DNA from: Escherichia coli
GTDB taxonomy: Bacteria; Pseudomonadota; Gammaproteobacteria; Enterobacterales; Enterobacteriaceae
Length of the DNA: 64,000 nt
Reading direction: 5' to 3' (one strand)
NCBI RefSeq assembly: GCF_009931435.1
Contig: NZ_CP043414.1
Shown: positions 9,861-10,480 of the stretch, in pieces
How the letters are laid out: each line of letters opens with the position of its first letter
Position numbering within the stretch: position 1 is the first letter of the stretch
Position numbers and translations under genes: made by a program
Notes under the pieces: generated by a model
Database searches by the model: none
Seen by the model: the letters and a program-made list of their open reading frames with translations, nothing else
Told to the model about the DNA's origin: nothing

Positions 9861-10480
9861 GGCACGGGCTGCTGGCGCTGATTTGCTGGCTGTGTTGTGT
9901 TGTTGCTCATAGCGAAATGCTGAATGTCGAACAATCGGGGCTGTTTCGCGCCTGGTTTGTGCGTATTGCACAGGAACAGCTTCGCCAGGGGCCAAGTCCG
10001 CGCTGGTATCAGCAGGATTGTGCGGGCCTGGTGCGATTTTCGGCGAACGAGGCGCTGAAAGTTCACGACAGCAAATGGCTAAAAAGTAACGGTATAGCAA
10101 GTCAGTATTTGCCGCCTGAAATGACGCTAACACCTGAACAGCGTCAACTGGCGCAAAACTGGAATCAGGGGAACGGAAAAACCGGCCCCTATGTGACCGC
10201 GATTAATTTGATTCAGTACAACAGCCAATTTATTGGCCAGGACATAAACCAGGCGTTGCCTGGCGATATGATTTTTTTCGATCAGGGCGATGCCCAGCAC
10301 TTAATGGTCTGGATGGGGCGTTACGTCATCTACCACACCGGAAGCGCCACGAAAACTGACAACGGAATGCGCGCAGTCAGTCTGCAACAACTTATGACAT
10401 GGAAGGACACCCGATGGATACCCAACGATTCCAATCCCAATTTCATTGGCATTTATCGTTTAAATTTTCTGGCGCGATAG
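9857..10480 (+). CDS. yfaT: YfaT, DUF1175-family exported protein
   Basis: ORF 9830-10480; start [19 protein letters not shown] has a signal-peptide-like N-terminus; 207 aa. Confidence 0.85.

Follow-up and report, generated by a model that had tools for sequence, protein, structure and literature searches.

A probable long out-of-frame overlap between yfaT and yfaS in Escherichia coli, with the yfaS start placed inside the last codons of yfaT

The window analysed here is a stretch of 64,000 nucleotides (nt) of Escherichia coli DNA (NCBI RefSeq assembly GCF_009931435.1, contig NZ_CP043414.1), in which a tightly packed five-gene operon, yfaA-yfaT-yfaS-yfaQ-yfaP, lies on the + strand 3' of gyrA (5398-8025). 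The subject of this report is the junction between the second and third genes of this operon, where the reading frame of yfaS, a bacterial alpha-2-macroglobulin gene, stands at -1 relative to that of yfaT and is open from 10360, after a TGA at 10357-10359. The original prediction had proposed that the two genes share about 67 nt out of frame, from an ATG at 10414 to the end of the yfaT stop codon at 10480; this arrangement is borne out by the sequence, and the comparisons given below make it probable that yfaS does start at that ATG and that the overlap is real. The features on which the argument turns are the following.

9857-10480, + strand: yfaT, encoding a DUF1175 / MagC-like protein related to NlpC/P60 (Pfam DUF1175, E = 1.5e-58), with its TAG stop at 10478-10480.
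10414-15018, + strand: yfaS, encoding a type II (thioester-less) bacterial alpha-2-macroglobulin of 1534 amino acids.
10414-10480, + strand: the candidate dual-coding overlap of 67 nt, with frame 0 giving the last 22 YfaT residues and the stop, and frame -1 giving the signal-peptide n-region of YfaS and the start of its h-region.
10388-10423, + strand: an island of suppressed synonymous variation in yfaT, codons -30 to -19 before the stop (CAA CTT ATG ACA TGG AAG GAC ACC CGA TGG ATA CCC).
10399-10401, + strand: an upstream in-frame ATG without a Shine-Dalgarno sequence, five codons (15 nt) 5' of 10414; a possible minor start.
10403-10407, + strand: a Shine-Dalgarno sequence, AAGGA, six bases 5' of the ATG at 10414.
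10414-10416, + strand: the ATG that is the likeliest yfaS start, its A taken from the yfaT Arg codon CGA and its TG from the Trp codon TGG; it yields the 1534-residue product.
10414-10527, + strand: a predicted Sec-type signal peptide of 38 residues, with cleavage after ANA and a mature start of DDSLPSSNY.
10477-10479, + strand: an ATA in the yfaS frame that overlaps the TAG; most Pseudomonas, Yersinia, Aeromonas and other relatives have ATG (as ATGA) there.
10489-10491, + strand: a TTG, rejected as the start; 13 residues to the cleavage site and no Shine-Dalgarno sequence.
10504-10506, + strand: a GTG, the start used by RefSeq and its annotation pipeline (PGAP), rejected; 1504-residue product and 8 residues to the cleavage site.

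The ATG at 10414 had been described as the only one upstream of the signal peptide, which does not hold, since a second in-frame ATG lies at 10399, where the program-made list of open reading frames begins its frame; the next canonical starts after 10414 are, as had been stated, the TTG at 10489 and the GTG at 10504. Moreover, the suggestion of an unusually long translational coupling finds no support in the layout of the site, because the succession of AAGGA, six bases and ATG points to independent internal initiation, not to termination-reinitiation, which normally acts over a few bases.

Depending on the start codon, the predicted cleavage site is preceded by 43 residues (ATG 10399), 38 residues (ATG 10414), 17 residues (ATA 10477), 13 residues (TTG 10489) or 8 residues (GTG 10504), and the last three starts leave no charged n-region. 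Inspection of the peptide that begins at 10414 reveals an n-region of net charge +1, a 21-residue uncharged stretch and A-N-A followed by DD; the E. coli n-region has a single Lys, whose codon falls within the overlap, and the predicted mature end, DDSLPSSNY, aligns with the EDxVxPSxY of the Pseudomonas proteins. Translation from 10414 would thereby give a peptide of the cleavable Sec type, which translation from 10489 or 10504 would not. Two other export signals were considered and rejected: for a twin-arginine (Tat) signal, Pseudomonas has T-R-R without the following hydrophobic consensus and E. coli has T-Q-R, and for a lipoprotein signal, IAAC (residues 22-25) resembles a lipobox but has no preceding hydrophobic core, and its Cys is a Tyr in Escherichia sp. 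E1V33.

The RefSeq/PGAP annotation of the two E. coli genomes inspected starts yfaS at the GTG equivalent to 10504, with a product of 1504 residues and no overlap, and in eight further records listed no alpha-2-macroglobulin coding sequence is annotated under 10385-10484. If this model were right, yfaS would run from the GTG at 10504 (or the TTG at 10489) and the open frame upstream would be a by-product of yfaT; the 1504-residue versions are common in databases, and it is a common view that annotated overlaps of this length, 67 nt, often reflect mistakes in annotation. However, the model leaves only 8 or 13 residues before A-x-A, with neither an n-region nor a Shine-Dalgarno sequence, and both codons are unconserved within Escherichia (E. 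whittamii, Escherichia sp. E1V33 and E. albertii lack TTG 10489, and E. albertii lacks GTG 10504 as well). It also leaves unexplained the rare-codon AAGGA-N6-ATG, the complementary distribution of start sites and the conservation island within E. coli, all described below, and members of the family are periplasmic (PMC3735191). The model is therefore extremely improbable, and the GTG 10504 start in RefSeq is probably an error. The expectation that 10489 and 10504 would truncate the signal peptide is thus upheld, and, between the two options that had been offered, a real long overlap is supported, whereas a misassigned start does exist but in the opposite sense, on the side of the RefSeq annotation. 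An exact-protein look-up in a collection of 15 billion sequences returned both the 1534-residue version (ATG 10414) and the 1504-residue version, and not the 1539-residue version (ATG 10399).

The YfaT carboxyl terminus, which the overlap encodes in frame 0, follows the pattern ...DTRWIPxxxNPNFIGxYRLxFLxR/Q with the same final residue in 22 diverse homologues that are 62-80% identical to the E. coli protein. Since every homologue keeps this terminus and ends it at the same point, the stop of yfaT at 10480 is taken as ancestral, and the possibility raised beforehand, that yfaT might end earlier in other strains, found no instance among the relatives.

To compare start sites, metagenome contigs were scanned for the yfaT motif QHLMxWMG, which lies about 170 nt upstream of the junction, so that the sample is unconditioned on the junction itself. 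Together with the genome loci, the scan provided 165 distinct junctions in 29 YfaT clusters at 85% identity, and since many of the sequences belong to closely related Pseudomonas, the statistics were taken at the level of clusters. The equivalent of 10414 is ATG or GTG in 21 of the 29 clusters, and it is reached through four different Arg codons (CGA, AGA, CGG and AGG); the remaining eight clusters have CTG, from CGC. In 13 of the 21 clusters there is no other ATG, GTG or TTG before the hydrophobic core of the signal peptide, and the internal start is the sole option. In most of those 13 clusters the core starts 11-19 codons past the internal start, so that it extends to or across the yfaT stop; the Salmonella and Superficieibacter clusters, also among the 13, have it starting at codons 24-29. 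Wherever the internal start is missing, in eight clusters, an ATG or GTG is found at the yfaT stop or shortly past it, and no cluster lacks both (Fisher p = 0.003). Similarly, a Shine-Dalgarno-like sequence (AAGGA or GGAG) is found in 19 of the 21 clusters with the internal start versus three of the eight without it (Fisher p = 0.008).

None of the 88 genome-derived junctions has a stop in the -1 frame between the internal start and the end of yfaT; by chance, a lineage would show such an open frame with a probability of 0.11-0.23 in Escherichia, Superficieibacter and Yersinia and with a higher one in the other groups. Within the wider metagenome set, only loci L198 and L183 have the frame closed. 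The metagenome contig L198 has a stop five codons past the internal ATG and a GTG that overlaps the yfaT stop (GTGA), and its sister in the same YfaT cluster, L125, keeps the -1 frame open; both carry AAAGA instead of AAGGA, and the pair gives the impression of a lineage that is abandoning the internal start.

The same comparison bears on the upstream ATG at 10399, from which initiation would lengthen the overlap to 82 nt and the precursor to 1539 residues, either instead of or alongside initiation at 10414. It is in frame and is the first ATG past the upstream stop, and synonymous codon choice preserves its A in every case where the encoded residue permits (ACA in 73/73, AAA in 6/6, and CAA in L083), as in most Pseudomonas and enteric sequences. 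Against it, the codon has no Shine-Dalgarno sequence, many clusters have CTG, TTG or some other non-ATG codon in its place, the n-region that it would yield has a net charge of 0, and the 1539-residue protein is the one missing from the collection named above. Salmonella and locus L090 have a stop separating the counterparts of 10399 and 10414, by which 10414 is singled out of the two. Initiation at 10399 is accordingly quite unlikely, although the codon may contribute as a minor start or form part of a standby or GGA site.

A further candidate is the ancestral site that overlaps the yfaT stop. A canonical start in this position is absent in E. coli and present in most of the Pseudomonas, Yersinia and Aeromonas relatives; in Escherichia, Superficieibacter and Salmonella the ATGA is replaced by ATAG or ATAA, which leaves no stop-overlapping start, and Superficieibacter electus has no alternative canonical start up to +90. 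E. coli might nevertheless use this site, now ATA 10477, by termination-reinitiation, with the internal ATG left unused. The ATA occupies the very position of the ATG in relatives, the rare codon before it (CGA or CAA) is kept, and the peptide that begins at the equivalent position looks like a complete signal peptide in Salmonella and Superficieibacter. However, initiation at ATA is very weak in E. coli, the E. coli peptide from there would lack a charged n-region, with its only Lys lying upstream in the overlap, and the conserved Shine-Dalgarno sequence and ATG at 10403-10416 would go unexplained. As the principal route this is very improbable; reinitiation at the ATA might still contribute as a minor route.

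The internal start at 10414 has also left a trace in the codons of yfaT itself. When the 3' halves of yfaT from genome assemblies (86 distinct sequences, mostly of Pseudomonas but also of Escherichia, Superficieibacter, Salmonella, Enterobacillus, Yersinia, Aeromonas and one Methylococcales bin) are aligned codon by codon without gaps, synonymous entropy is about 0 at 10388-10423 and ordinary along the rest of the gene. Background codon shares were taken from neighbouring coding sequence of the same loci. Measured against them, CGA (Arg) occurs at its island position in 85/86 sequences, with a background share of 0-14% of Arg codons; it makes up 0-4% of the Arg codons in the genes around Pseudomonas yfaT and is needed there for the internal ATG/GTG. 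Likewise, ATA (Ile) is used in 78/86 (background 0-9%), ACA (Thr) in 73/73 (0-18%), CAA (Gln) in 86/86 (2-56%) and AAG (Lys), which lies in the Shine-Dalgarno sequence, in 83/83 (12-100%); at the other Lys columns of yfaT, AAG and AAA are about evenly divided (~50:50) in three of four and stand at 64:8 in the fourth. CCC is likewise used in 85/86, and the conserved island codons are non-preferred in Pseudomonas. Seen from the yfaS frame, these choices preserve AAGGA-N6-ATG (10403-10416) and also the upstream ATG at 10399. The last sense codon of yfaT, for its part, mostly ends in A (CGA in 44/48, CAA in 37/37) and is followed by TGA, which creates the stop-overlapping ATG (ATGA).

A similar island appears within E. 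coli, where positions 10385-10484 are at least 99% identical in 5198/5380 genomes (97%), and flanking 100-nt windows reach that identity in 247/5379 (200 nt upstream) and 161/3727 (just downstream), or about 4-5%; this is what two superimposed constraints would produce. On these sequence comparisons, the island at 10388-10423 is read as an internal translation-initiation region of yfaS, and the overlap bears the marks expected of dual coding, in that both frames are open and conserved across divergent relatives and the Shine-Dalgarno sequence and start are kept against codon bias. As a side observation on the same locus, the interval 9700-10900 of the window is matched at 99% or more by only 67/5393 E. 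coli genomes, most of the others being at about 97%, so that the window represents a minority lineage at yfaT/yfaS.

The island may alternatively be asked whether it is mainly a regulatory RNA site, for the protein CsrA/RsmA acting on three GGA motifs (AUGGAAGGA...AUGGAUA) or in the form of a hairpin.

10401-10469, + strand: a weak predicted RNA hairpin of uncertain status, which pairs the Shine-Dalgarno/AUG region with the yfaT codons for F-I-G-I/V-Y-R and F-L.

The three GGA motifs fall within 10401-10418, one of them inside the Shine-Dalgarno sequence, so arranged that two AUGGA motifs stand 15 nt apart with AAGGA between them, and the P. aeruginosa mag operon, the counterpart of the yfa operon, is under RsmA control (PMC3735191). 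The hairpin forms part of the E. coli minimum-free-energy fold and of the alignment consensus, and is predicted in most lineages; in 55 sequences, 97% of its cells are paired, and all variation is compatible with wobble pairing. One part of this imperfect hairpin pairs CGAUGGAU, in the start-codon region, with AUYUAUCG in the yfaT codons for I/V-Y-R.

The stability of the hairpin, however, does not exceed that of synonymous-codon nulls (z from -1.8 to +1.5). It is missing from the centroid of the E. coli fold, which like the z-score of that fold is unremarkable, and it has minimal covariation and, with the whole junction region, no Rfam match at E <= 1; RNA structure was accordingly rejected as the cause of the island. 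Pairing would favour G at the third position of the CGA codon, which is seen in 1/55 distinct Pseudomonas and enteric sequences and there makes a GTG. The enteric sequences in fact tend to be less structured than their synonymous-codon nulls (z = +0.9 to +1.5), which suits an initiation region. The complementarity of start sites across clusters, moreover, is predicted by a start-codon model and not by a binding-site model, and the main text of a preprint on RsmA cross-linking and immunoprecipitation sequencing (CLIP-seq) has no mention of the mag genes. A mainly regulatory origin of the island is thus unlikely. A CsrA site normally overlaps the ribosome-binding site, and targeting of the internal site by CsrA/RsmA could, judging from the motifs, add to its reading as a start and would not replace it. 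In the vicinity, the region 8000-11000 contains no sigma-70-like site, and no terminator-like site was found near the junction.

A programmed -1 frameshift that would fuse YfaT to YfaS was also considered and rejected. The heptamer A AAT TTT at 10462-10468 fits the slippery pattern X XXY YYZ in E. coli, and a -1 slip on it would enter the yfaS frame; it is not conserved, since S. electus and Salmonella read AAC TTT at this place and Pseudomonas reads AAC TTC or TTT, with CTG before. Because it is absent outside Escherichia and one Superficieibacter, its presence is probably due to chance.

Among known systems, the closest is the magC-magD pair of Pseudomonas aeruginosa (PA4490-PA4489) in the magABCDEF operon, an orthologous pair in an orthologous operon, with the same set of DUF2138, DUF1175, thioester-less macroglobulin, DUF2300 and DUF2135 proteins; the E. 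coli operon has five genes versus six in mag, and YfaT is about 70% identical to its Pseudomonas homologues. MagD is a periplasmic type II alpha-2-macroglobulin with a cleavable signal peptide, which in strain PAO1 has 26 residues, and the first 64 residues suffice for export of a MagD1-64-mCherry fusion (PMC3735191). A signal peptide of 26 residues fits the short, stop-overlapping start. The sampled Pseudomonas species, which come from loci other than those of P. aeruginosa itself, conserve the internal Shine-Dalgarno-ATG as well and have in addition an ATGA start overlapping the magC stop, whereas E. coli has ATA there and a shortened signal region downstream. As the stop-overlapping start suffices for export (PMC3735191), the internal start would not be required in Pseudomonas.

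The junction may also be set beside two general classes. With long out-of-frame, same-strand overlaps it shares the reading of two frames, a Shine-Dalgarno sequence and start located inside upstream codons, and suppressed synonymous variation; at 64-70 nt across clusters, it greatly exceeds the 1 or 4 nt that are usual, and it is kept in at least 21 divergent YfaT clusters. Termination-reinitiation junctions (ATGA or TAATG), by comparison, are represented by the other junctions of the operon, which are of the tight type, and most relatives have ATGA at yfaT/yfaS too; the E. coli yfaS start differs from them in lying 64 nt 5' of the stop codon with a Shine-Dalgarno sequence of its own, while its stop-overlapping codon is ATA.

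Taken together, these observations suggest a mechanism in which ribosomes would initiate yfaS at ATG 10414 from the AAGGA at 10403-10407, inside the last 26 codons of yfaT, probably by direct binding of the 30S subunit to the internal site and not by back-scanning after termination at the yfaT stop. The 67 shared bases would encode the conserved carboxyl terminus of YfaT in frame 0, and in frame -1 the loosely constrained n-region and first h-region residues of YfaS; such an n-region can overprint constrained sequence because it needs little beyond an open frame and some positive charge. The internal-start arrangement would be ancestral to the MagC/MagD (YfaT/YfaS) pair, and many lineages, including most Pseudomonas, would add a stop-overlapping ATGA start 63 bases downstream. 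Since ATA replaces the ATG of this second start in Escherichia, Superficieibacter and Salmonella, these genera would depend on the internal one.

A more speculative extension, which we regard as rather unlikely, is that the two conserved starts of MagC/MagD are separately selectable and, in lineages with both, give two precursors differing only in their n-region, with CsrA/RsmA able to set macroglobulin output at the internal site without affecting the other products of the operon, and with E. coli as a natural single-site variant.

Several points weigh against initiation at 10414. The E. coli YfaS n-region from this codon has a net charge of just +1 and is unusually long; the Shine-Dalgarno sequence is degraded to AACGA or AATGA in Superficieibacter and Salmonella, two groups without a stop-overlapping start; and the conservation of the internal start in Pseudomonas could serve another purpose. 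At the same time, the predominance of closely related Pseudomonas leaves the cluster counts small, and no start-site mapping or N-terminal proteomics of YfaS was found in the searchable literature.

The remaining genes of the operon, identified from Pfam matches, are the following.

8172-9860, + strand: yfaA, the first gene of the operon, DUF2138 and MagB-like (E = 7e-287); the RefSeq annotation of near-identical genomes supports this.
15019-16668, + strand: yfaQ, DUF2300 and MagE-like, with a GTG start.
16673-17449, + strand: yfaP, DUF2135 and MagA/F-like.

The ATG of yfaT overlaps the stop of yfaA (ATGA), the TAA of yfaS directly abuts the GTG of yfaQ, and a gap of 4 nt separates yfaQ from yfaP. 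The 1534-residue product of yfaS matches the Pfam families MG2 (1e-26), A2M_BRD (8e-18), A2M (3e-12) and bMG10 (7e-6); it has no C.EQ (CxEQ) thioester motif, and its Cys residues are only at 25, 27 and 1189. Its partners encode DUF2138, DUF1175, DUF2300 and DUF2135 proteins, not pbpC, in a gene order that is the same in RefSeq records. This domain set, the lack of a thioester or lipobox anchor and the partner genes place the operon with the type II (MagD/YfaS-type) alpha-2-macroglobulin systems. The annotation of K-12 BW2952 (L002 8805-13319) treats the alpha-2-macroglobulin gene as a pseudogene broken by an internal stop; the open reading frame of the window is intact over its 1534 residues. 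The strain that matches the window most closely, Z0117EC0005 (L001 1-2690, upstream of ubiG), has its yfaL/ehaC autotransporter gene interrupted by an IS3-family transposase. A look-up of the YfaT of Serratia microhaemolytica (P0109) found no record, and in a riboswitch-screen paper the operon is listed only for a window about 3.7 kb away.

Part of this picture is already known: the 1534-residue model of YfaS is in databases, and long same-strand, out-of-frame overlaps with an internal ribosome-binding site are an established type. We did not find described, in the searchable literature, an ancestral overlap kept across many lineages of the yfaS/mag operon, nor two start sites that alternate or coexist across lineages, with E. 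coli reliant on the internal one.

For the annotation of YfaS, the practical consequence is that the RefSeq start drops the signal peptide and can mislead predictions of localisation; a paper on the ~170-kDa proteins of strain E2348/69, for instance, did not count YfaS among the predicted secreted proteins, an omission that may be linked to the start annotation. Within the gene pair, a change of CGA to CGC or of AAG to AAA would be synonymous in yfaT and would disable the internal start while leaving YfaT unchanged. For the family as a whole, the junction would represent a long out-of-frame overlap conserved over a wide evolutionary distance, which may persist because the overprinted n-region of a signal peptide tolerates almost any sequence.

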